A stretch of 12,505 nt of DNA, from NCBI GenBank assembly GCA_036556905.1, contig DATBIM010000035.1:1-12505 (forward strand), given 5' to 3'. Shown piece by piece: positions 2,118-11,216 of this stretch. The position numbers and the translations under genes were made by a program. Source of the stretch: Candidatus Methylomirabilota bacterium. Its GTDB lineage: Bacteria > Methylomirabilota > Methylomirabilia > Rokubacteriales > CSP1-6. Under the pieces are notes generated by a model. The model saw only the letters and a list, made by a program, of their open reading frames with translations. It ran no database searches and was not told the DNA's origin. Each line of letters begins with the position of its first letter. Within the stretch, counting starts at the first letter, position 1.

Positions 2118-3146
2118 GTGACCCGCGCGCCGGCCACCCTCCTGCTCGTGCTGCTCCTGGCGCCGGGCGTGGCGAGCGCCGAGCTCGCGCTGCCCTCCGG
2201 ATTCAGCGCCGACATCTACGTCACCGGGAGCGGATTCGGCTCGAGCCCCGCGCAGGCCTTCGAGGGCATTCCCGCGGCGTCCACCATGGCCTTCGACGAC
2301 GCCGGCATGCTCTATCTGGCCCGAACCGGCCGCCGGTATGGCGGCGGCGAGGTCGATGACCGCTGGCCCCTCTACCGGATTCCCCTCGGCGGCGCCCGTC
2401 TGACGCGGGACAACGAACACCGGTTCTTCCATGGCCCGCCCCTCCCGAGCCCGCAGGTCGTCGCCATCCGCGGCGGGCGAGAGCTCTTCGTGACGACCTT
2501 CGATCGCGACCGGAAGATCGGGGTGCTCTATCGGCTGCTCAGCGGGACGATCGAGCTGTTCGCCGGGGGCACACCGCCGCGGGGCACGGCGCCACTGCTG
2601 CGCCAGCCCGAGGGCGCCGCGATCGACTCCGCCGGCCACCTCTACGTCGCCGATCGCGCGGCCGGGCGCATCGTGAAGCTGGACCCGCACGGGCGCGTTC
2701 TCGACCCTCAGTGGCTGACGGTGACGCGCCCGCGCACGCTGGCCATGGGCGAGCAGGACTACCTGTGGGTGGGCAGCGATGGCCCGGCCGAGGCCCCGTG
2801 GGGGGTGGGGCCAGGCGAGATCTGGCGGGTGAGCCCCGACGGCCTGCCGTCGGTGGTGCTGCAAGGCCCGCTCGCCGCCGCGATCAGCGTTGGGCCCGGC
2901 GGCCGGCTCTTCGTGGCCGACCGGCAGGCCGGGCTGATCTTCGCCCTGAGCCCGCAGGGCGAGCGCACCGAGCTCGTCCGCTTCAGCGGGGGCGATGCGC
3001 CGCGCGGCCTCTGCTTCGCGCCGGATACCCCGGCCACGCGGCGCGCGGGGATCGCCGGCGACCTCTTCGTCGTCACGATCCGGCGCGGCGCCTGGCCGCT
3101 CAACGAGGTGGTCCGGATCTCCGGGCCCTTCGATCGCCGGCCCTGA
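2118..3146 (+). CDS. Secreted NHL-repeat / six-bladed beta-propeller protein
   Basis: Probable GTG start at 2118 gives MTRAPATLLLVLLLAPGVASA|ELAL, a classic signal peptide with an AxA cleavage site. The ORF track starts at TTG 2067, adding 17 non-signal residues. Repeated NHL-like blades are present: GHLYVADRAAGRIVKLDPHG, GRLFVADRQAGLIFALSPQG and AGMLYLARTG. Confidence 0.65.
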   Translation: MTRAPATLLLVLLLAPGVASAELALPSGFSADIYVTGSGFGSSPAQAFEGIPAASTMAFDDAGMLYLARTGRRYGGGEVDDRWPLYRIPLGGARLTRDNEHRFFHGPPLPSPQVVAIRGGRELFVTTFDRDRKIGVLYRLLSGTIELFAGGTPPRGTAPLLRQPEGAAIDSAGHLYVADRAAGRIVKLDPHGRVLDPQWLTVTRPRTLAMGEQDYLWVGSDGPAEAPWGVGPGEIWRVSPDGLPSVVLQGPLAAAISVGPGGRLFVADRQAGLIFALSPQGERTELVRFSGGDAPRGLCFAPDTPATRRAGIAGDLFVVTIRRGAWPLNEVVRISGPFDRRP

Positions 3147-3149
3147 CGG

Positions 3150-3179
3150 CTTGACGCTCGGCCCGCCTGTCCCGTAGAT
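3150..3179 (+). promoter_or_regulatory. Possible sigma70-type promoter (TTGACG-N18-TAGATT) ending about 8 nt before the outer-membrane protein ATG, which would make the mRNA near-leaderless
   Basis: TTGACG lies at 3150-3155 and TAGATT at 3174-3179. There is no SD before ATG 3187. This is a weak motif call only. Confidence 0.2.
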
Positions 3180-3186
3180 TCAGCCA

Positions 3187-3915
3187 ATGCGACGGCGTGG
3201 CCTGCTGATCGTGGCGATCGTCCTGGCCCTGCTGCTCTCCCTCGCGCCGGGGCCCGCGTCCGCCGAGGTGGTCTTCGACCTCTACTTCGGCGGCGCCTTC
3301 ACCGCCTGGGACGACCTTTCGGCTCGATTCGACCAGACCTTTCAGATCCTGGAGGACGTCGGCTACGACGACTCCATCATCGGCGGTGGCCGGATCGCGT
3401 ACTGGTTCGATCGCCCGATCGTGGACCGTCTCACCTTCGGCATCGGGCTCGATGTCTTTCACTTCACCCCGGATATAGATTTCCAGACGGTGGACGGCGC
3501 CCAGACCTTCGGGGGGCTGACGCTCGCCGGAGAGTTCGCGGTCTTCCCGATCGATATTTCCGTCGTCGCCGTCGGCCTCGATCTGATGGTCCGCTGGCCC
3601 TTGATGCCGAGCCGGGACTTCCCCCGGGGTCGGCTGCAGCCCTACCTGACCGCCGGGCCGGCCGTGTTCTTCTCCGAGATCGAGGATACGGACAATTTCT
3701 CGCCCGGCAATCAGTCGGACAAGGACACGACCGTCGGCTTCAAGATCGGGACGGGCATGGTCTGGTACCTGGTCCCGAATCTGGCGGTGTTCGGCGAGTG
3801 GCGCTTCACGTACTTCAGCCCCGAGTGGAACGTCACCGACAACGGCGTCTCGGGAAAGCTGGAGACGGACATCAGCACCTTTTACCTGCTGGTCGGCCTC
3901 TCCCTCCGCTTCTAG
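3187..3915 (+). CDS. Outer-membrane beta-barrel protein (OmpW/OmpA-like small porin family)
   Basis: Signal peptide MRRRGLLIVAIVLALLLSLAPGPASA|EVV. The mature protein has alternating amphipathic beta-strands and ends ...FYLLVGLSLRF with a C-terminal Phe, the BAM-recognition signature. GC is about 60%, against about 73% in the flanks. Confidence 0.65.
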   Translation: MRRRGLLIVAIVLALLLSLAPGPASAEVVFDLYFGGAFTAWDDLSARFDQTFQILEDVGYDDSIIGGGRIAYWFDRPIVDRLTFGIGLDVFHFTPDIDFQTVDGAQTFGGLTLAGEFAVFPIDISVVAVGLDLMVRWPLMPSRDFPRGRLQPYLTAGPAVFFSEIEDTDNFSPGNQSDKDTTVGFKIGTGMVWYLVPNLAVFGEWRFTYFSPEWNVTDNGVSGKLETDISTFYLLVGLSLRF

Positions 3916-3927
3916 CCTGACCGGACG

Positions 3928-4875
3928 CTATTTCTTTTCTCGGGGCGTGCCGCGCAGGACGTCTGCGTCCAGGATGAAGTTCTGGCCTGAAGGCAGCATC
4001 ATGACCTGGATCTTGTCGCTCAGCTTCTGAACCATGGCGTAGCGCACGAGCTCGGGCGTGAGCGACGCCGCCAGCTTTCTGTTCGCCTCGGCCTCCTTCT
4101 CGGCCCGGAACAAGATTGCGCTGCCTTCTCCTTTGGCCCGTTCAATGGCCTGCTGGGCCTTGTGCTTTTCCCCCTCGATCTTCTGCTGCTCTTCCAGGGC
4201 GCGCTGGGTGGCGATCTGCTTGTCTTCGATGGCTTTCTTGAATTCTGGATTGAAGTCGATGTTGTCCAGCAGCAAGTCGACCACCTCGATCGAGAAGGGG
4301 GACAGTTCTTTCTCCAGTCGTTCCCGGACGGCCTTTCTGATGTTCTCCCGATTGGGGGCAATCTCGACGCTCCTGTACTTCACGGTTTCATCCTTGAAAT
4401 TCTGAATCACCCTCGATTCGACCAGGACATTGAAAAAGTTGGGGCCGACGGTCCGGTACAGCTCCTGGATGGCTTGCGGAGACACGCGGACATTGAGACT
4501 GGCGCGGACGAAGACATCCTGGCTTTCTTCGCTGAAGGCGTTGAGCTTATCGAACACGCGACGCTGCACCTGGATGTTGGCAAGCAGGACGTTGCGCCAG
4601 GGCGCCACGAACTGCAGCCCCTCGCCAATCTGGCCTTTGATGCCGCCAAATTCATAGACGACGCCGATGTGGCCGGCGGGCACCTGGTGGACGGAGGCGA
4701 ACAACGTGAGCAAGACCATGAGGACCAGGATTCCGACCCTTCCCGGTCCCAGCAAACCGGCCAGGTCGCGCACCCGGGATGGCCCGTAGTCACTGATCCC
4801 GGGCAGGTTTCGTCTGGCGGTGAACAGGAGGACCGCCACCACGGCAAGGACGATCATCGCGAGAATGTACAACAT
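3928..4875 (-). CDS. SPFH/Band-7 (prohibitin/HflC-like) membrane protein
   Basis: N-terminal transmembrane segments are followed by VPAGHIGVVYEFGGIKG...VRASLNVRV...EVVDLLLDNIDFNPEFKKAIEDKQIATQRALEEQQ, i.e. an SPFH core plus coiled-coil. A strong SD AAGGAAGGAG lies 7 nt before ATG 4875. GC is only about 59%. Confidence 0.85.
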   Translation of the reverse strand: MLYILAMIVLAVVAVLLFTARRNLPGISDYGPSRVRDLAGLLGPGRVGILVLMVLLTLFASVHQVPAGHIGVVYEFGGIKGQIGEGLQFVAPWRNVLLANIQVQRRVFDKLNAFSEESQDVFVRASLNVRVSPQAIQELYRTVGPNFFNVLVESRVIQNFKDETVKYRSVEIAPNRENIRKAVRERLEKELSPFSIEVVDLLLDNIDFNPEFKKAIEDKQIATQRALEEQQKIEGEKHKAQQAIERAKGEGSAILFRAEKEAEANRKLAASLTPELVRYAMVQKLSDKIQVMMLPSGQNFILDADVLRGTPREKK

Positions 4876-4905
4876 GGACGGCTCCTTCCTTAGCGTCGGG
4901 CCGGG

Positions 4906-6123
4906 TCAGAAGATCTCCGGGCACCAGGGCGCCCGCGCGGTGCGGAACAGCGCGTCGGCGCGCGCGATGGCGCCGGGGCGCAGCTCCTCGACCCGTAGCG
5001 CCTGCGCGAGCTGGGCCCAGGTGAAGCCGCCCAGGTACACGGAGCCGAGCGCGGTCACATCGCAGCGCAGCTCCGGCTCGCGCTCGGTTCGCTTGCTGCC
5101 GCCCTCGCCCACCTGCCAGCGGCCTTCGTTCCACGGGCAGAACTGGTCCACGAACTCGATGATCACGACCCCCGGCGCCGCGTAGGAGCGCGCCGACAGG
5201 GCGGCCTCCACATCCACCAGCCGGACCCAGAGGCCGTCCCGGAGGCTGAAGCGCAGGCGGCGCGGCTCGGCCAGCAGCAGGAGCAGGGGATGATCGAGGG
5301 GCAGCGGCCACGCCCGCAGCCGCGCCATCCAGTCGATGTCCAGCAGATACCGCCAGATCGCGCGTGTCGCCTGGGCCGAGTCGCCCATCGCCTCGACGGC
5401 TTCGATGACCCCCGTCTGCACGCCGCGATCCCACGCGGGTTGGAGCCGGTAGAGCGCGTATGCTGCGGGGCGGCCCTCGGCCTCGAGCACCGCGCACTGC
5501 AGCTCGCCCCCTCCCCGCCGCCGCCACTCGGGATCGACGAGGACACGGGTCTGCCACCACGCGGCCGTGCGCGCGAACATGCCGGGCGTCTCGGCCGCGA
5601 CGTGCTCGTAGACGGGGGCGACGAGGTGCGCGGCCTGCGCGAAGGGCACGAGCCGGGTCGCGCCGACCGGCTCGAAGCGCGCATAGTACGCGGATCGCTC
5701 GCGCGGGAGCTCGATCTCTGCCGCGAACGAGGCGATGCCGTAGCCGAAGCGGCCGTAGATCATGTCTTCGGTCGCCCACAGGTAGGCGACGGATTCGCCG
5801 CGGTCGTGGCAGGCGTCGAGCTGCGCCCGCATCATCGCGGTGAGAATGCCCCGCCGCCGATGGGTGGGCAGCACGCCGACGATGGTCACGCCGGCGGCCG
5901 CAATGCGCCCACCCGGCACGGTCAGCTCGAACGGGTAGGCGCCGGCGCCGCCCACGGCGTGGCCGTCCTCCCAGGCGGCGTGGGCGCGCTCGGCGGGCAT
6001 GAGGCGCTCGAGGCTCGACAGCTGATTCTCGTTGGGCGCCGAACGTCCGAAGTAGTGCGAGATCGGAGCCGCCGCGGCGCGCAGCTCGTCGGCCGAGGCG
6101 CAGGGCCGCACCTGCCAGGGCAT
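4906..6123 (-). CDS. Eis-like GNAT N-acetyltransferase (tandem GNAT plus C-terminal SCP2-like domain), 405 aa
   Basis: GNAT motif A is GVLPTHRRRGILTAMMRAQLD. A second GNAT-like region follows, then a C-terminal SCP2-like segment (GSVYLGGFTWAQLAQALRVEE). The length of about 400 aa is typical of the Eis family. The SD GGGAGG lies 6 nt before ATG 6123. Confidence 0.75.
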   Translation of the reverse strand: MPWQVRPCASADELRAAAAPISHYFGRSAPNENQLSSLERLMPAERAHAAWEDGHAVGGAGAYPFELTVPGGRIAAAGVTIVGVLPTHRRRGILTAMMRAQLDACHDRGESVAYLWATEDMIYGRFGYGIASFAAEIELPRERSAYYARFEPVGATRLVPFAQAAHLVAPVYEHVAAETPGMFARTAAWWQTRVLVDPEWRRRGGGELQCAVLEAEGRPAAYALYRLQPAWDRGVQTGVIEAVEAMGDSAQATRAIWRYLLDIDWMARLRAWPLPLDHPLLLLLAEPRRLRFSLRDGLWVRLVDVEAALSARSYAAPGVVIIEFVDQFCPWNEGRWQVGEGGSKRTEREPELRCDVTALGSVYLGGFTWAQLAQALRVEELRPGAIARADALFRTARAPWCPEIF

Positions 6124-6215
6124 GGCAGCCTCCCTCGAGAAGCCCGGTCATTCTAGCAAGAGATCGCCTCCCACGAGATGGCGCGGCATCGCCGGGCGAG
6201 ACCGCGGAAAGGCTT

Positions 6216-6243
6216 CTTGACAACCGACGGCGGCCGCATAGAG
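6216..6243 (+). promoter_or_regulatory. Candidate sigma70 promoter for the DUF1326-DUF2182 operon: TTGACA-N16-TAGAGT
   Basis: TTGACA lies at 6216-6221 and TAGAGT at 6238-6243, about 40 nt upstream of ATG 6286. The intervening leader contains the GGAGGTG SD. Confidence 0.35.
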
Positions 6244-6285
6244 TGGTGCGCATCAGGCCCGGTCGAACTTCAATCGGAGGTGCCT

Positions 6286-6912
6286 ATGGCGACCGCGACG
6301 AAGACTCGATGGCAGATGAGCGGACAGGGGTACGAATTCTGTAACTGCGACTTCGGTTGCGGGTGCAACTTCGGCGGGTTCCCGAACTCGAAGGATGGCA
6401 GCTGCCGCGCGCTGGTCGGCTTCACGGTGACGAAGGGGCGCTGCGGCGACACCGATCTCTCTGGCGTGAAGGGCGCCGGGATCTTCGTGTGGCCCAAGGC
6501 CATCCACGAGGGCAACGGCAAGGCCGCCTTCATCGTTGACCCCGCCACCACCGACAAGCAGGTGGAGGCGCTCGCCCAGATCTTCACTGGCCAGCTCGGC
6601 GGACTGCCGTGGGAGCTTCTGGGACCCACCTTCCAGGTCGCCGGCCTCGTGAAGGCGAAGATCAGTATCGACGGGACCGGACGCAAGAGCACGTTCCGCA
6701 TCGACGGCGTCGGCGAGGCACGCGGGGAAGCCTTGAAGAACCCGGTCACCGGCGAGGACCACATCGTCAACGTCGATCTGCCCACCGGCTTCATCTGGAA
6801 AAAGGGCGAGGCGGGCTCGGGCTCGTTCCGCGCGGCGGCCGCCGGCCTCTCCGTCGAGTCCAACAAGACGAACTGGATCTACTACAAGTATGACTGGTCG
6901 AACGCTGCCTGA
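6286..6912 (+). CDS. DUF1326-family protein with N-terminal Cys cluster CNCDFGCGCNFGG
   Basis: The start is ATG 6286, with a GGAGGTG SD 5 nt upstream. The ORF-track start at 6178 is an out-of-context extension. The CxCxxxCxC motif at residues 19-27 plus Cys at 46 and 59 is the hallmark of DUF1326. The rest of the protein is soluble and beta-rich. Confidence 0.7.
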   Translation: MATATKTRWQMSGQGYEFCNCDFGCGCNFGGFPNSKDGSCRALVGFTVTKGRCGDTDLSGVKGAGIFVWPKAIHEGNGKAAFIVDPATTDKQVEALAQIFTGQLGGLPWELLGPTFQVAGLVKAKISIDGTGRKSTFRIDGVGEARGEALKNPVTGEDHIVNVDLPTGFIWKKGEAGSGSFRAAAAGLSVESNKTNWIYYKYDWSNAA

Positions 6913-6930
6913 CGCGGCCGGCCCCGCGCG

Positions 6931-7743
6931 ATGAGCGAGGCGGCGCTCGAGTCGCTGCTCCGTCGCGACCGGCTCGTCGTGAGCGTCGCGCTGGCGGTGC
7001 TGGTCGTCGCCGCCTGGGCCTATCTCCTCTATCTCGCGTCCGCGATGGCGGACATGGCGATGCCCGATATGCCCGGGATGCCGGGCATGGCCATGGCGAT
7101 GCCCGCCATGCATCCGTGGAGCTGGGTGGAGGCGGGTGCGCTTGCCGTCATGTGGGCGGTGATGATGGTCGCCATGATGACGCCGTCGGCCGCGCCGATG
7201 ATCCTGATGTTCGCCACCATCCACCGGCGCCGTGCCGCCGAAGGGCGTGCCGCGGTGCCCACGGCGATCTTCCTCCTGGGCTATTTCGTCGTCTGGACGA
7301 TCTTCAGCGTCGTCGCGGCGCTCGCCCAGACCGGCCTCCACGCCGCCGCGCTGCTCTCGCCCGCCATGGCGGCCACGAGCCCGCTGCTCTCCGGCGGCCT
7401 GCTCATCGCCGCCGGCGTGTTCCAGTGGACGCCGCTCAAGCGCGCCTGCCTCGCCACCTGCCGCTCACCGCTGTCCTTCCTCATGACCAGCTGGCGCGAA
7501 GGCCGCGGCGGCGCCTTCGTGATGGGGATGCGCCATGGCCTCTACTGCCTCGGCTGCTGCTGGGCGCTCATGGCGCTGCTGTTCGTCGCGGGCGTGATGA
7601 ACCTCCTGTGGGTCGCCGCCATCGCGGTGACCGTCCTCGTGGAGAAGGTGGTGCCGGGTGGCGACCTCGTCGGTCGCCTCGCCGGCCTGGGGCTCGTCGC
7701 CGCCGGCGTGCTGCTTCTGGCTCGAGTGATCGTGCCCGCCTGA
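6931..7743 (+). CDS. DUF2182-family predicted metal-binding integral membrane protein with a Met-rich motif
   Basis: It has 6-7 hydrophobic transmembrane segments. Between TM1 and TM2 lies MADMAMPDMPGMPGMAMAMPAMHP, with MxM/MxxM spacing like copper-binding Mets motifs. Conserved C...C and CxxCC features are present: TPLKRACLATCRSP and LYCLGCCW. DUF2182 is a known partner of DUF1326. Confidence 0.7.
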   Translation: MSEAALESLLRRDRLVVSVALAVLVVAAWAYLLYLASAMADMAMPDMPGMPGMAMAMPAMHPWSWVEAGALAVMWAVMMVAMMTPSAAPMILMFATIHRRRAAEGRAAVPTAIFLLGYFVVWTIFSVVAALAQTGLHAAALLSPAMAATSPLLSGGLLIAAGVFQWTPLKRACLATCRSPLSFLMTSWREGRGGAFVMGMRHGLYCLGCCWALMALLFVAGVMNLLWVAAIAVTVLVEKVVPGGDLVGRLAGLGLVAAGVLLLARVIVPA

Positions 7744-7750
7744 TACCGAC

Positions 7751-8722
7751 CTACAGGCTCCTGAGGAAATCGAGCATCGCGGCAGTGACCTCCCGGGGCC
7801 GTTCCTGCTGCGTCCAGTGGCCGCACCCGGGGAGCATGATCGTCTTCCGGAGCTGGGGGACGAATGTCTTGAGGTTCGGGATGAGCTGGTCCATGCCCCG
7901 GAAGGCGACGACGAGGTCCCGGTCGCCGGCGACGTAGAGGGCGGGGACGGTCACCCGCGCCCCGGCAAAGGGCGCCAGCAGCTCCCAGCTGCGGTCGATG
8001 TTGCGGTACCAGTTGAGCCCTCCGCGGAAGCCGGTGCGCGTGAATTCCTTCGTGTAGAAGTCGAGGTCGGCCTCGGACAGCCACGCCGGCAAGGCCGAGG
8101 GCTCGACCAGGCTGCTGAGGAGGCCACCACGCCTCGGCACCAGTCCGACTCGATCGGCATCGGGAAATGCTGCGTCCCCGCGGGGCAGGTCGCCCGAGGC
8201 CGTGTACAGGAGGCAGCGCAGGGAACGACGGACGTCGCGCTCGAGCTCGGCCTCGGCCACGCCCGGCTCCTGGAAGTAGAGCTGGTAGAACAGCCCGTCG
8301 TCGGTCTGGGGCATGACGGTGGTCGGACGGACCCGGCCGCGCGGCCGGAACGGGACGCTGAGAGCGATGACTGCGCGCACGCGGTCGGGACGGAGCAGTG
8401 CGGCGTGCCAGGCCACCGGGGCGCCCCAGTCGTGGCCGACGATCACGGCCGATTCAGCGCCCAGCGCCTCGATCAGGCCGACGATGTCGCCGACGACGTG
8501 CAGCAGCGTGTACTGCTCGATCGCCTGCGGCTGATCGGTCTGGCCGTAGCCGCGCATGTCGGGCGCGACGGCATGGAAGCCCGCCGCGGCGAGCGCGGGC
8601 ACCTGGTGCCGCCAGGAGTACCAGGACTCCGGGAACCCATGGCAGAGGATCACCGCCGGGCCCTCCCCCTGCTCGGCGATGTGCATGCGGATACCGTTCG
8701 CCTCGACGAAGCGATGGATCAT
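7751..8722 (-). CDS. Alpha/beta-hydrolase, epoxide hydrolase-like, 323 aa
   Basis: MIHRFVEANGIRMHIAEQGEGPAVILCHGFPESWYSWRHQ carries the HGFP oxyanion motif. VIVGHDWGAPVAW supplies the Asp nucleophile, NWYRN a cap Tyr, and GCGHWTQQERP the catalytic His. The 773-aa ORF in the track is an upstream frame extension across the neighbouring gene. The real ATG at 8722 overlaps the S41 stop as ATGA. Confidence 0.85.
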   Translation of the reverse strand: MIHRFVEANGIRMHIAEQGEGPAVILCHGFPESWYSWRHQVPALAAAGFHAVAPDMRGYGQTDQPQAIEQYTLLHVVGDIVGLIEALGAESAVIVGHDWGAPVAWHAALLRPDRVRAVIALSVPFRPRGRVRPTTVMPQTDDGLFYQLYFQEPGVAEAELERDVRRSLRCLLYTASGDLPRGDAAFPDADRVGLVPRRGGLLSSLVEPSALPAWLSEADLDFYTKEFTRTGFRGGLNWYRNIDRSWELLAPFAGARVTVPALYVAGDRDLVVAFRGMDQLIPNLKTFVPQLRKTIMLPGCGHWTQQERPREVTAAMLDFLRSL

Positions 8723-10125
8723 CGCGACGGCCTGGCCCCCACCACGTCGAGGGCCCGGCGGAGCTGGGGATCCCGCGCGGGGTCCCAGAGCCACCGGTCT
8801 TCGTCGACGCTGCGGGCGACCTCTACGTCCGGAGTGAGCCCGCGCCGATCGATGGAGCGGCCCGCGGGCGTGAACCAGTGGGCCGTCGTCAGCCTGAGCC
8901 CGGCGCCGTTGGTGAGCGGGATGATGCTCTGGATCGACGCGCGCCCTTGCGTGGTCGTCCCGACGAGCCGGGCGCGCTGCCACTCCTGGAGCGCGCTGGC
9001 CACGATCTCCGCGCCCGCCGCCGTGCCCTCGTCCACCAGGACCACGAGCGGCGCGTCGAGGCTCGGACGCTTGGCGTGGGCGGGGAACCGCACGCTCTGT
9101 TGCGGCGTCCGTCCCTCGGTATAGGTCACCAGCCTCCCCGCGGGCAGAAACAGCTCGGCCACGCCGATCGCCGCCGTCACGGGCCCACCGCTGTTGACCC
9201 GGAGATCGAGCACGAGCGCCCGCGCCCCCGCCGCGCCCAGCGTGTCCAGCGCGGTCTGGACTTCCGGGGGCGTCGAATCCTGGAGCCGACGGATCCGGAT
9301 GTAGCCGACGCCCGGACGAACCACCTTCGACTCCACGCTGCGGGCCCGGCTCGCCTCCCTGACGACGGAGATCTCTCGAGGCTGGGCCCACTCTCGCCGG
9401 GCGACGGTCAGCGCCGCGGCGCTGCCCGGTCTCCCCCAGAACAGGTCGACGGCATCGGTGAGCTTCATGCGCTCGGTCGATACCCCGTCGATCCGCAGAA
9501 TCCGATCGCCCGCGCGAAGCCCGGCGCGGGCTCCCGGGCCGCCCTCGATCGGGGCGACGACCGTCAGGGCCCGGTCGCGCAGCGTGACGTCGAGGCCGAC
9601 CCCGGCCGGTGGGGCGTTCTTGAGCGTCGCGTACCGCGTCGGATCGAGGTAGGCGCCGTTGTCGTCGAGGGCCATGAGGCCCCGGAGCATGGTGGCATTG
9701 AGGTCGTCGACGCTCGTGCCCAGCCGGGTCCGCACGAAGTCCGACGCCCGCTGGACCGCCCGGAGCATATCGGCCGCCGAGGGATCGGGTGGCCAGGACA
9801 GCACGAGCATGGACTCGGGGGACCGTGACTCGCCCTGCATGATCGTCGCGCCGTAGCCACCCTCGACGACGCGGATCGCGCGCTTGGGGGGAATCGCCTC
9901 CAGGCTGCGGAGGGCGGTCAGGCCGAGAGTCTCGACCGGAATCTCGGCCACATGCTGGGCGCGCACGACGGTGATCGCCTCGGCCACGGGCCCACTGGTC
10001 TCTCGGGGCGTCCCCCCGGGCAGGACCACGCGATCCTGATGCTGGCCACCCGTCGTGCAGGCGGCCGCCCACAGCAGGAGCCCCGCCGCGCCTCCGAGGT
10101 AGCGGACCCGTGGTCGCTTCGTCAT
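8719..10125 (-). CDS. S41 (C-terminal processing peptidase/Tsp) family lipoprotein with PDZ domain, predicted catalytically inactive
   Basis: The real start is MTKRPRVRYLGGAAGLLLWAAAC, a lipoprotein-type signal with the ATG at 10125. The PDZ domain is GVGLDV...GLRAGDRILRIDG. S41 core motifs are GYIRI, LDLRVNSGG and VLVDEG-TAAGAE-IVASALQ...TQGRASIQS. The Ser and Lys dyad positions read Ala370 and Arg395. The ATG overlaps the dinB stop as ATGA. Confidence 0.8.
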   Translation of the reverse strand: MTKRPRVRYLGGAAGLLLWAAACTTGGQHQDRVVLPGGTPRETSGPVAEAITVVRAQHVAEIPVETLGLTALRSLEAIPPKRAIRVVEGGYGATIMQGESRSPESMLVLSWPPDPSAADMLRAVQRASDFVRTRLGTSVDDLNATMLRGLMALDDNGAYLDPTRYATLKNAPPAGVGLDVTLRDRALTVVAPIEGGPGARAGLRAGDRILRIDGVSTERMKLTDAVDLFWGRPGSAAALTVARREWAQPREISVVREASRARSVESKVVRPGVGYIRIRRLQDSTPPEVQTALDTLGAAGARALVLDLRVNSGGPVTAAIGVAELFLPAGRLVTYTEGRTPQQSVRFPAHAKRPSLDAPLVVLVDEGTAAGAEIVASALQEWQRARLVGTTTQGRASIQSIIPLTNGAGLRLTTAHWFTPAGRSIDRRGLTPDVEVARSVDEDRWLWDPARDPQLRRALDVVGARPSR

Positions 10126-11216
10126 GACGTCGGCTCCGCCGCCCGCACGAGCTTCTCCGCGCGCACGCCGATCAGCCGGATCTTGCGCTGGCGGGGGTTC
10201 TCGCGGTGATCCAGGAAGGGCAGGAGCAGGCGGACGGCCCCGGTGTAGAGGGCGTTCTCGGTGGTGAGCGGTTCCCGGGGCGTGTGCGAGCGGGTGAAGG
10301 TCATGAAGTTCTCGAAGCGCACGGTCACGGTGACGGTGCGGAAGGCCGAGAAGCCGTGGCCGCCCAGGCGCACGAAGACGCTGCGGGCCAGCTCGCGCGC
10401 GCGCTCCAGCACGAACGCCGCCTCCAGGGTGTCGCGCTCGAACGTCTCCTGCTCGCCGACGCTCTTGGGCTCCCACTCGTTGGACACCGGGCTGTCCGAA
10501 TTGCCGCGGGCCTTGGCGTAGAGATCTTCCCCCCAGCGGCCGAACCAGTCGACGAGCTGGAGGAGCTCGAGGTCACGGAGCTGGCGGACGGTGCGAATCC
10601 CGCGCTCGTGGAGCAGGGCCTCGGACTTGGGCCCGATGCCGGGGATGACCCGGATCCGGAGCGGATCGAGGAAGGCCTGGACCTCGTCCGGGCGCACCAC
10701 GGTCAGGCCATCCGGCTTCTTGAAGTCGGAGGCGATCTTGGCCACGAGCTTGTTGGGGCCCAGCCCCACGGTGCAGGTGAGCCCCTCCTGCGCGACGATC
10801 TCACGCTTGATGGCCAGCGCGCGCTCGGCGGCGGCCTCGAAGGTGGCCAGCGTCGAGAGGTCCAGGTAGGCCTCGTCGATACTGGCCTCCTCGAAGAGAT
10901 CGGCGCGCTGGGCCAGCAGGGCCATGATGCGCTGGGAGACCTCACCGTAGAGCTTGTGGTTGCCCTCGATGAAGACCGTGGCGGGCTCGCCCCGGCGCTG
11001 GGCAGCCTGGGCCAGCCGCCAGGCCCGGGTGATCGGCAGGGCAGACCGGATGCCGTACTTGCGGGCCGCGTAGTTCGCGGCGGTCACCACGCCTCGGCCC
11101 TGCCCGTCCTTGGGGTCGGCGCCCACGACCACCGGCCGGCCCCGGAGCTGTGGGTTGTAGCGCTCCTCGACGGCGGCGTAGAAGGCGTCCATGTCCACGT
11201 GCGCGATGATCCGCAC
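10122..11216 (-). CDS. dinB: DNA polymerase IV (Y-family translesion polymerase)
   Basis: GTG start at 11216. The sequence VRIIAHVDMDAFYAAVE...EASIDEAYLDL...PGIGPKSEALLHERGIRTVRQL is canonical DinB/UmuC. It is 364 aa, and the TGA stop overlaps the next gene's ATG. Confidence 0.9.
   Translation of the reverse strand: MRIIAHVDMDAFYAAVEERYNPQLRGRPVVVGADPKDGQGRGVVTAANYAARKYGIRSALPITRAWRLAQAAQRRGEPATVFIEGNHKLYGEVSQRIMALLAQRADLFEEASIDEAYLDLSTLATFEAAAERALAIKREIVAQEGLTCTVGLGPNKLVAKIASDFKKPDGLTVVRPDEVQAFLDPLRIRVIPGIGPKSEALLHERGIRTVRQLRDLELLQLVDWFGRWGEDLYAKARGNSDSPVSNEWEPKSVGEQETFERDTLEAAFVLERARELARSVFVRLGGHGFSAFRTVTVTVRFENFMTFTRSHTPREPLTTENALYTGAVRLLLPFLDHRENPRQRKIRLIGVRAEKLVRAAEPTS

Follow-up and report, generated by a model that had tools for sequence, protein, structure and literature searches.

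Does a gene that encodes a bacterial C-terminal processing peptidase (CTP) in which both residues of the catalytic dyad are replaced still specify a protease, or has the fold been kept for another use? The question is raised by a stretch of 12,505 nucleotides from Candidatus Methylomirabilota bacterium, order Rokubacteriales (positions 1 to 12,505 of contig DATBIM010000035.1, assembly GCA_036556905.1), which was analyzed as a whole and is called the window here. Its minus strand carries a complete gene for a CTP homologue of peptidase family S41, with alanine (Ala370) in place of the nucleophilic serine and arginine (Arg395) in place of the general-base lysine. From comparison with its relatives, the product is quite probably a pseudo-protease that no longer catalyzes and that selection maintains for binding or regulation. 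Any specific version of that role, be it trap, decoy or hetero-oligomeric subunit, is a tentative proposal.

The open reading frame (ORF) has a GC content at third codon positions (GC3) of 0.89, which matches that of real genes in a window with an overall GC content of about 70%, and the long antisense ORFs of the window differ from true genes in this measure. Residues 273-436 of the product match the Pfam family Peptidase_S41 (PF03572) with an E-value of 1.4e-44, covering profile positions 2-165 of 165, and Pfam places the PDZ domain before the protease core, which is the domain order of CTPs. The G-V-G-L carboxylate-binding loop of the PDZ domain is kept, and Gly175 and Gly177 are nearly invariant. 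The closest solved relative is CtpA from Pseudomonas aeruginosa (phmmer, E 1.1e-67). An AlphaFold2 (AF2) model of the dyad-less homologue (pLDDT 80.4) finds the CtpA-LbcA structure 8sxf as its best Foldseek match (E 1.5e-34), and the top 50 matches in the PDB are all CTPs, namely CtpA, CtpB, D1P, Prc and an S41 peptidase from A. baumannii. The architecture is complete for a CTP, from a predicted signal peptide and lipobox through the N-terminal region, PDZ domain and S41 core to the C-terminal helix. The gene is a member of peptidase family S41 by homology, and the match is not a chance occurrence. With 226.4 bits, the protein also exceeds the threshold of the NCBIfam ‘prc’ model TIGR00225 (218.6), so that automated annotation would name it a C-terminal processing peptidase.

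The N-terminus has the features of a lipoprotein signal, with a Lys/Arg-rich n-region, a hydrophobic core and the sequence A-A-A-C23, in which the residue at -3 is Ala, not Leu, in the window copy. The cysteine and the hydrophobic stretch that precedes it are conserved in orthologues and in distant members of the clade (LLLAAC in P0011, PLLAAC in L008), and many group 1 representatives end in L-x-[AGS]-C at the putative lipobox.

The assignment of the catalytic columns rests on two structures of CtpA. In the phmmer alignment, the motifs of wild-type CtpA (7RPQ) are GSASAAEI...FGKGSVQ, whereas GSAAAAEI stands in the S302A mutant (7RQH). Ala370 occupies the nucleophile column because it is aligned to the sole position that separates 7RPQ from 7RQH, and Arg395 lies under the lysine of CtpA. 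On the DNA, positions 8941..9018 run exactly from the codon of Arg395 to that of Ala370. The catalytic triads are Ser302-Lys327-Gln331 in P. aeruginosa CtpA and Ser309-Lys334-Gln338 in CtpB (PMC8764530), and the title of the structure entry for H. pylori CtpA gives S300/K325/Q329. The spacing of 25 and +4 residues in these triads is reproduced by Ala370, Arg395 and Gln399. In the AF2 model Ala370 lies at the N-terminal end of helix 370-381, the position that the catalytic serine of S41 enzymes takes on that helix (PMC10120077). An active S41A peptidase requires a serine nucleophile, within G-[ST]-A-S-A-[SA]-E-I where the active-site helix starts, and a lysine 25 residues later in T-F-G-K-G; neither is present here, and the glutamine at Lys+4 is.

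The residue at position 370 is the same as that in the engineered, protease-dead S302A mutant of CtpA. Neither in vitro nor in vivo does this mutant show activity, and it traps MepM and other substrates (PMC6050968). By this precedent we infer that the native protein cannot cleave, because Ser302Ala kills proteolysis in its closest solved homologue. By descent the protein is an S41 member, but it lacks both hallmarks of an active S41 peptidase and is thus a ‘non-peptidase homologue’. A preliminary description of the locus had claimed that both dyad residues are replaced in an S41 CTP homologue, that the 25-residue spacing is preserved and that all three serines of the nucleophile motif are lost (T368, A370 and A372). 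The solved structures of CtpA, CtpB and Prc bear out the assignment of the columns, the distance from A370 to R395 is that found in CtpA, CtpB and H. pylori CtpA, and the three serine positions read as described. The same description held the PDZ domain, the LDLRVNSGG motif and the fold to be intact, with which Pfam, the AF2 model and Foldseek agree, and it took the protein for a lipoprotein, a prediction that is strengthened by the conservation of the putative lipobox cysteine in the clade. The coordinates of these features and of the adjoining genes are collected in Table 1.

Table 1. Features of the S41 homologue and its flanking genes, in window coordinates.
Feature	Position	Strand	Remarks
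S41/CTP homologue without the dyad, complete coding sequence	8719..10125	minus	ORF and translation; 468 aa plus stop
G367-T-A-A370-G-A-E-I374, replacing G-S-A-S-A-S-E-I	9004..9027	minus	Ala370 codon 9016-9018 (GCG), nucleophile column
T392-Q-G-R395-A-S-I-Q399, replacing T-F-G-K-G-S-V-Q	8929..8952	minus	Arg395 codon 8941-8943 (CGC; plus-strand GCG), general-base column
Gln399, third triad residue, retained	8929-8931	minus	nearly invariant
LDLRVNSGG motif, residues 306-314, retained	9184..9210	minus	D307, L308, R309, G313 and G314 invariant in dead and active relatives
S41 protease-fold core	8818..9309	minus	residues 273-436; Pfam PF03572; LDLRxNxGG, E373, Q399, LRLTT and PD motifs conserved
PDZ domain	9394..9603	minus	residues ~175-244; PDZ_6 E 1.6e-12, also PDZ and PDZ_2
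N-terminal alpha/beta region	9676..9996	minus	residues 44-150; ~65 residues are an insert absent from CtpA-type CTPs
Signal peptide and lipobox, MTKRPRVRYLGGAAGLLLWAAA-C23 (predicted lipidated Cys)	10057..10125	minus	read from sequence
dinB (DNA polymerase IV family), upstream	10122..11216	minus	Pfam IMS and IMS_C; TGA overlaps ATG of the S41 homologue (ATGA)
alpha/beta-hydrolase gene, downstream	7751..8722	minus	Abhydrolase_1 E 4.8e-34; ATG overlaps TGA of the S41 homologue (ATGA)

The substitutions are shared by a clade. Among relatives gathered from a search of 5.8 billion proteins, those at 39-100% identity (P0001-P0012, P0014 and P0028) have G-T-A-A-G-[A/S/C]-E-I in every protein that covers the motif, and Arg, Gln or His in the lysine column. 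The matches that rank next, which are about 45% identical and labeled Methylomirabilota, Rokuibacteriota or the like, have kept GSASASEI and FGKG. In a peptide-pattern scan of one genome per species (185,579 species), made with GTAAG[AS]EIV and a second pattern, GTAAG[AS]EIV was found in S41 relatives only in metagenome-assembled genomes of Methylomirabilota/Rokubacteria. The motif-bearing loci encode proteins that are 92% (L006), 82% (L007) and 50% (L008) identical to the window protein; a truncated relative from the clade (L022, 46% identical) ends before the motif, and all other loci in the scan came via the second pattern and carried Ser/Lys. With the motif columns masked, a core clade that consists of the window protein, P0002, P0003, P0007, P0011, P0012, P0014 and P0121 is recovered in 98 of 100 bootstrap replicates of a neighbor-joining (NJ) tree.

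Within the clade the two dyad positions behave differently. Position 395 flips between Arg and Gln in orthologues that are about 80% identical, and is His in others, as would be expected of a residue released from catalysis; the conserved state would then be ‘no Ser, no Lys’, not ‘Ala/Arg’. In a comparison of 25 sequences of the dead, dyad-less group with 28 sequences that carry Ser/Lys, position 370 is Ala in 24 of the former and Ser in all of the latter, and position 395 is Arg, Gln, His or Leu in the former but Lys in all 28 of the latter. The positions that tell the two sets apart cluster on both catalytic motifs (S368T, S370A, A371G and S372A; F393x, K395R/Q/H, G396A/T/S and V398I), and S370A is accompanied by the neighboring S368T and A371G in every examined member of the core clade. 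Around the PDZ domain, the dead group differs by H156D, F173x and T196G. The PDZ G-x-G-[LI] loop, LDLRxNxGG, E373, Q399, the LRLTT strand and the C-terminal D-P-Q-L-R-R-A-L helix are all retained in the dead clade. A tryptophan at position 417, where active enzymes have Tyr, has been gained and conserved, and together with the conserved gain of Arg416 it suggests a new constraint, not simple loss.

Reading frames are open in 8 of 8 DNA copies, whose products are 39-92% identical to the window protein. The ratio of nonsynonymous to synonymous substitution rates (dN/dS) is 0.22 between the window and L006 (dS 0.18) and 0.28-0.33 against L001 and L002 (dS 0.18-0.35), and for six neighboring genes in the same genome pairs it ranges from 0.09 to 0.46. 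Of the three main regions (N-terminal, PDZ and core), the core domain has the lowest dN in every pair. These values place the gene under purifying selection, if less stringent than for many of its neighbors. The reading in the preliminary description of a conserved but non-catalytic protein is therefore supported by the Ala shared across relatives at 39-100% identity, by dN/dS values of 0.22-0.33 and by the intact ORFs. Of the Ala/Arg pair that it described, the alanine recurs in the orthologues, but the arginine is not fixed and gives way to Gln or His even at 80% identity.

The phylum also has an active CTP. In metagenome assemblies of Methylomirabilota type, the canonical Ser/Lys CTP (L086-L088, gene 3001-4284 in each) lies in a conserved gatB / ftsE-ftsX-M23 peptidase-ctp arrangement, which points to an FtsEX-EnvC-CTP cell-wall module in the phylum. 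In P. aeruginosa, CtpA and its lipoprotein partner LbcA degrade hydrolases of the M23 and NlpC-P60 types (PMC6050968), and the ftsE-ftsX-M23-ctp operon would tie the active CTP of the phylum to cell-wall hydrolase control in the same way. We propose that the dyad-less homologue is a naturally protease-dead paralogue of bacterial CTPs (MEROPS S41A). Its fold would be kept, and among the elements that line the peptide cleft it retains the carboxylate-binding loop of the PDZ domain, the LRLTT strand, Gln399 and the LDLRxNxGG loop. A predicted lipid anchor would tether it to the membrane in the cell envelope, where it would most likely bind the C-terminal tails of proteins without cleaving them, because fold, PDZ loop and peptide-cleft motifs persist without catalysis. 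One option is that it would sequester or protect clients otherwise degraded by the ftsEX-envC-linked active CTP; another is that it would serve this CTP as a non-catalytic partner or adaptor.

Two alternatives would deny the gene a selected, non-catalytic role altogether. It could be decaying into a pseudogene after a recent loss of protease activity, for its dN/dS of about 0.3 exceeds that of the nearby dinB and DUF1326 genes, position 395 varies, and the proteins P0007 and P0008 have a C-terminal read-through extension. We find this scarcely credible, as the ORF is intact in 8 of 8 independent DNA copies, the dN/dS lies far under 1, sequences with an identity as low as 40% share the states of Ala370, Gly371 and Trp417, bootstrap support for the core clade is 98%, and the high GC3 is kept. 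It could, conversely, still be an active peptidase that works through another nucleophile or base; an activated water is one candidate, and Thr368 paired with either Arg395 or Gln399 is another. The core clade shows no variation at Thr368, and Gln399, E373 and the LDLRxNxGG loop are kept. We nevertheless rejected Thr368 as a replacement nucleophile: threonine at -2 is ordinary in Ser/Lys-bearing CTPs (TASASEIV in Blastocatellia and Planctomycetota), and it is thus not a compensating change. The base position toggles between Arg, Gln, His and Leu among close relatives, which is incompatible with a conserved catalytic role, and the engineered S302A enzyme is dead although its -2 Ser remains. Catalysis by such a route is very unlikely.

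Two further alternatives accept the loss of catalysis and differ in what the protein would bind. In the vertebrate interphotoreceptor retinoid-binding protein (IRBP), modules of S41 fold have lost the catalytic serine and bind retinoids (PMC10120077). By analogy, the window protein may have been recruited to bind a small hydrophobic ligand (a lipid, quinone or fatty acid) and not peptides; IRBP chains match it at E 2.9e-14, a conserved Trp417 has been gained near the cleft, and the flanks of the PDZ loop are altered. The protein keeps its PDZ domain and peptide-cleft motifs, however, the match to IRBP is confined to the core (residues 273-414), CtpA is far nearer (E 1e-67), and ligand-related genes are absent from the examined neighborhoods, so that we regard recruitment of this kind as unlikely. 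More plausible, though still doubtful, is a special case of the pseudo-protease reading, in which the protein is a non-catalytic subunit that hetero-oligomerizes with an active CTP in the manner of ClpR and ClpP. CTPs are obligate oligomers, CtpA being a hexamer, and the C-terminal helix motif D-P-Q-L-R/Q-R-A-L is common to dead and active Rokubacterial paralogues. The dead copy has the putative lipobox cysteine, where the aligned active paralogues have a hydrophobic N-terminus but no such Cys, and membrane tethering through it would be analogous to that provided by LbcA or NlpI. On the other hand, the N-terminal regions differ by the 65-residue insert, and the dead and active genes are unlinked.

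Loss of the dyad extends beyond the window's clade. A profile of the clade found 20,426 S41 proteins at E < 1e-30 among 1.84 billion 50%-identity representatives, and the dyad was counted in the best 150 of these 20,426, a sample biased towards the query. In it, 100 proteins have Ser/Lys, 34 are without both residues, 9 without Ser only and 7 without Lys only. Loss of Ser and loss of Lys are strongly coupled among these 150, and Ala/Arg is the commonest dead pair (19 cases). The NJ trees are distance-based and have long branches. In them about 20 clusters make up the window's group, which as a whole has a bootstrap support of only 49%; almost all of these clusters are dyad-less, and many have lipobox-like ends. 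The group adjoins Ser/Lys proteins in which its N-terminal alpha/beta insert is also found (P0126, P0127, P0135, P0140 and P0153). Other dyad-less groups are placed elsewhere, for example beside canonical CTPs of Nitrospirota, and monophyly of all dead sequences together is recovered in 0 of 100 bootstrap replicates. Several independent losses of the dyad are likely from these trees. A word-indexed search with a profile of 15 other dyad-less proteins returned almost only canonical Nitrospirota CTPs, in which S325 and K350 are at least 90% conserved on re-alignment. Two of the adjoining Ser/Lys proteins, P0140 and P0153, carry a long additional N-terminal region (VALVIGN..Y......L.NP.NDA...) that looks caspase/C14-like by eye.

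Dyad-defective S41 proteins also occur as fusions to ankyrin repeats (P0175 and P0185), TPR (P0149) and Sel1 (P0167) domains. The largest arrangement, that of P0201 (1467 aa), combines PG_binding_1, a PDZ-S41 unit in which Ser is present and Lys is replaced by Leu, TPR and at least ten ankyrin repeats. Such repeat-domain fusions offer circumstantial support for roles as envelope scaffolds or binding proteins. We speculate, with more doubt than confidence, that dyad-less CTPs form a recurrently evolved and unrecognized class of bacterial envelope pseudo-proteases, for which Ser to Ala (or Gly) along with Lys to Arg would have arisen independently in several CTP lineages. On this view they are often lipoproteins or fusions to repeat or peptidoglycan-binding domains, which would act as natural substrate traps or adaptors and protect, sequester or deliver the clients of active CTPs. 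If true, such a recurrent class would add an anti-protease layer to the control of peptidoglycan hydrolases, for example those of the ftsEX-envC-ctp pathway.

Several observations weigh against the binding role proposed for the window protein. S41 proteins that bear Ser/Lys are also fused to repeat domains or of multi-domain length, and we claim no enrichment of fusions among the dyad-defective ones. The flanks of the PDZ loop in active CTPs (F173, T196 and H156) are not conserved in the dead clade, so that binding of C-termini may be altered or lost. The dN/dS lies toward the top of the local range, and some relaxation of selection may have occurred. When we looked for a dead and an active paralogue in one genome, the three canonical proteins that were traced all came from other assemblies. 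Relatives at 40-50% identity lie in unrelated contexts, that of L004 adjoining GAF-cyclase, glyoxalase and DAO genes. We rejected the gene neighborhood as a guide to function, as it offers no conserved partner, and treat the link to dinB as incidental.

In the window itself, the ATGA overlaps with dinB and with the hydrolase gene (Table 1) would couple the S41 homologue translationally on both sides, and the hydrolase is probably co-transcribed with it. The hydrolase is absent at this position in L001, L002 and a contig from JGI, and sits between the S41 homologue and PpoB2 only in the window genome; it appears to be an insertion peculiar to that genome, joined to the dinB-S41 transcription unit there only. 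A 773-aa ORF (7751..10072, minus strand) that fuses the hydrolase gene to out-of-frame sequence from the S41 region was rejected as an artifact of the 70% GC content. Other very long ORFs in the wrong frame or on the wrong strand are likewise by-products of high GC, from which GC3 separates the real genes cleanly.

The order dinB-S41 homologue-PpoB2-DUF1326 is kept only among relatives of at least 72% identity. At 6178-7743 on the plus strand of the window, DUF1326 is followed by PpoB2 (Pfam ‘copper chaperone’, a Met-rich membrane protein), and the pair is conserved beside the S41 homologue in all close relatives. In the orthologues P0007 and P0008 (72-73% identity), the C-terminus is longer by about 50 residues, which are translated antisense to the neighboring PpoB2 gene; this extension corresponds to the minus-strand ORF at 7542-8084 of the window and reflects either a lost stop codon or a gene-calling artifact, the JGI gene call overlapping PpoB2 by about 200 nt. 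At L008 (Rokubacteria AR5, 50% identity), the dead CTP gene is found beside genes for ABC ATPases and a gene of unknown function, and it converges with a gene (9717-10562, minus strand) for a putative zinc metallopeptidase of the neutral type (PF04228, E 1.9e-117). A 372-aa ORF without a Pfam match precedes the dead CTP gene there, an arrangement not seen in the other loci. Farther away in the window, an SPFH/Band 7 gene (3928-4875, minus strand; Pfam E 6.1e-28) is part of a region of lowered GC content, from about 3500 to 5000, where the value is 0.60 against about 0.72 elsewhere. It is absent between the outer-membrane-protein (OMP) beta-barrel and GNAT-SCP2 genes in L001, L002 and the JGI contig, and looks like a recent insertion.

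What emerges as new is most likely a conserved pseudo-CTP of bacteria, a predicted lipoprotein, and dyad-less CTP lineages such as this one have probably evolved several times independently. JGI names these proteins ‘carboxyl-terminal processing protease’. Because the dead proteins carry this name and pass the TIGR00225 threshold, protease inventories of Methylomirabilota/Rokubacteria, and evidently of other lineages too, over-count active CTPs. CTPs control peptidoglycan hydrolases via lipoprotein adaptors, and a lipid-anchored paralogue that is naturally S302A-like would be a plausible new type of regulator, be it trap, decoy or adaptor. The recurrence of Ser to Ala and Lys to Arg in non-monophyletic groups may provide a tractable system for the repurposing of proteases into binders, in parallel to vertebrate IRBP. 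Pseudoenzymes are common, and it is the recurrent substitutions and the parallel with engineered substrate traps that make a reasonable experimental lead.

Inactive S41 homologues had been thought uncharacterized at the outset. For the family overall this does not hold, since vertebrate IRBP/RBP3 is a well-studied S41 homologue without the catalytic serine, and its amphioxus homologues have lost the serine too (PMC10120077). For bacteria it stands, as we found no characterized, naturally inactive S41/CTP homologue in open-access full text, which is weak evidence of absence. A 2008 survey treated inactive serine-protease homologues in prokaryotes generally and did not mention S41 (PMC2605481).

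Among known systems, the window protein is most like P. aeruginosa CtpA (7RPQ; S302A, 7RQH; CtpA-LbcA, 8SXE-8SXH), with which it shares domain order, fold and about 39-44% identity. With CtpA and other S41A CTPs (B. subtilis CtpB, H. pylori CtpA and E. coli Prc) it has in common the PDZ domain, the LDLRxNxGG loop, the triad glutamine, the LRLTT strand and the C-terminal helix. Unlike CtpA, it has Ala for Ser and Arg for Lys (Gln or His in relatives), it carries its own putative lipobox and would not rely on a TPR lipoprotein partner, and its N-terminus contains an extra alpha/beta insert of about 65 residues. Unlike that of the active CTP of its phylum, its gene lies outside the ftsEX-M23 operon.

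IRBP resembles it in that the serine was lost and the S41 fold was kept, and it is a characterized precedent for retention of such a protein for binding; the similarity is still detectable (E 2.9e-14). IRBP is, however, a eukaryotic, secreted, retinoid-binding protein of tandem modules from another S41 branch, whereas the window protein is a single-module, bacterial, CtpA-type protein with a PDZ domain. IRBP modules are not known to contain a PDZ domain. Similar in working only are the iRhoms and the ClpR proteins of cyanobacterial and plastid Clp cores, protease paralogues that turned into a regulator or structural subunit with the fold and the binding of clients or partners kept; ClpR is a non-catalytic subunit of these cores. 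Both belong to unrelated families and folds. A role of the kind proposed here is played by LbcA and NlpI, lipid-anchored proteins of the envelope that serve CtpA and Prc as adaptors and bind either the CTP or its clients. They are TPR solenoids without relation to the window protein in sequence or fold, and the window protein has no repeat domain.

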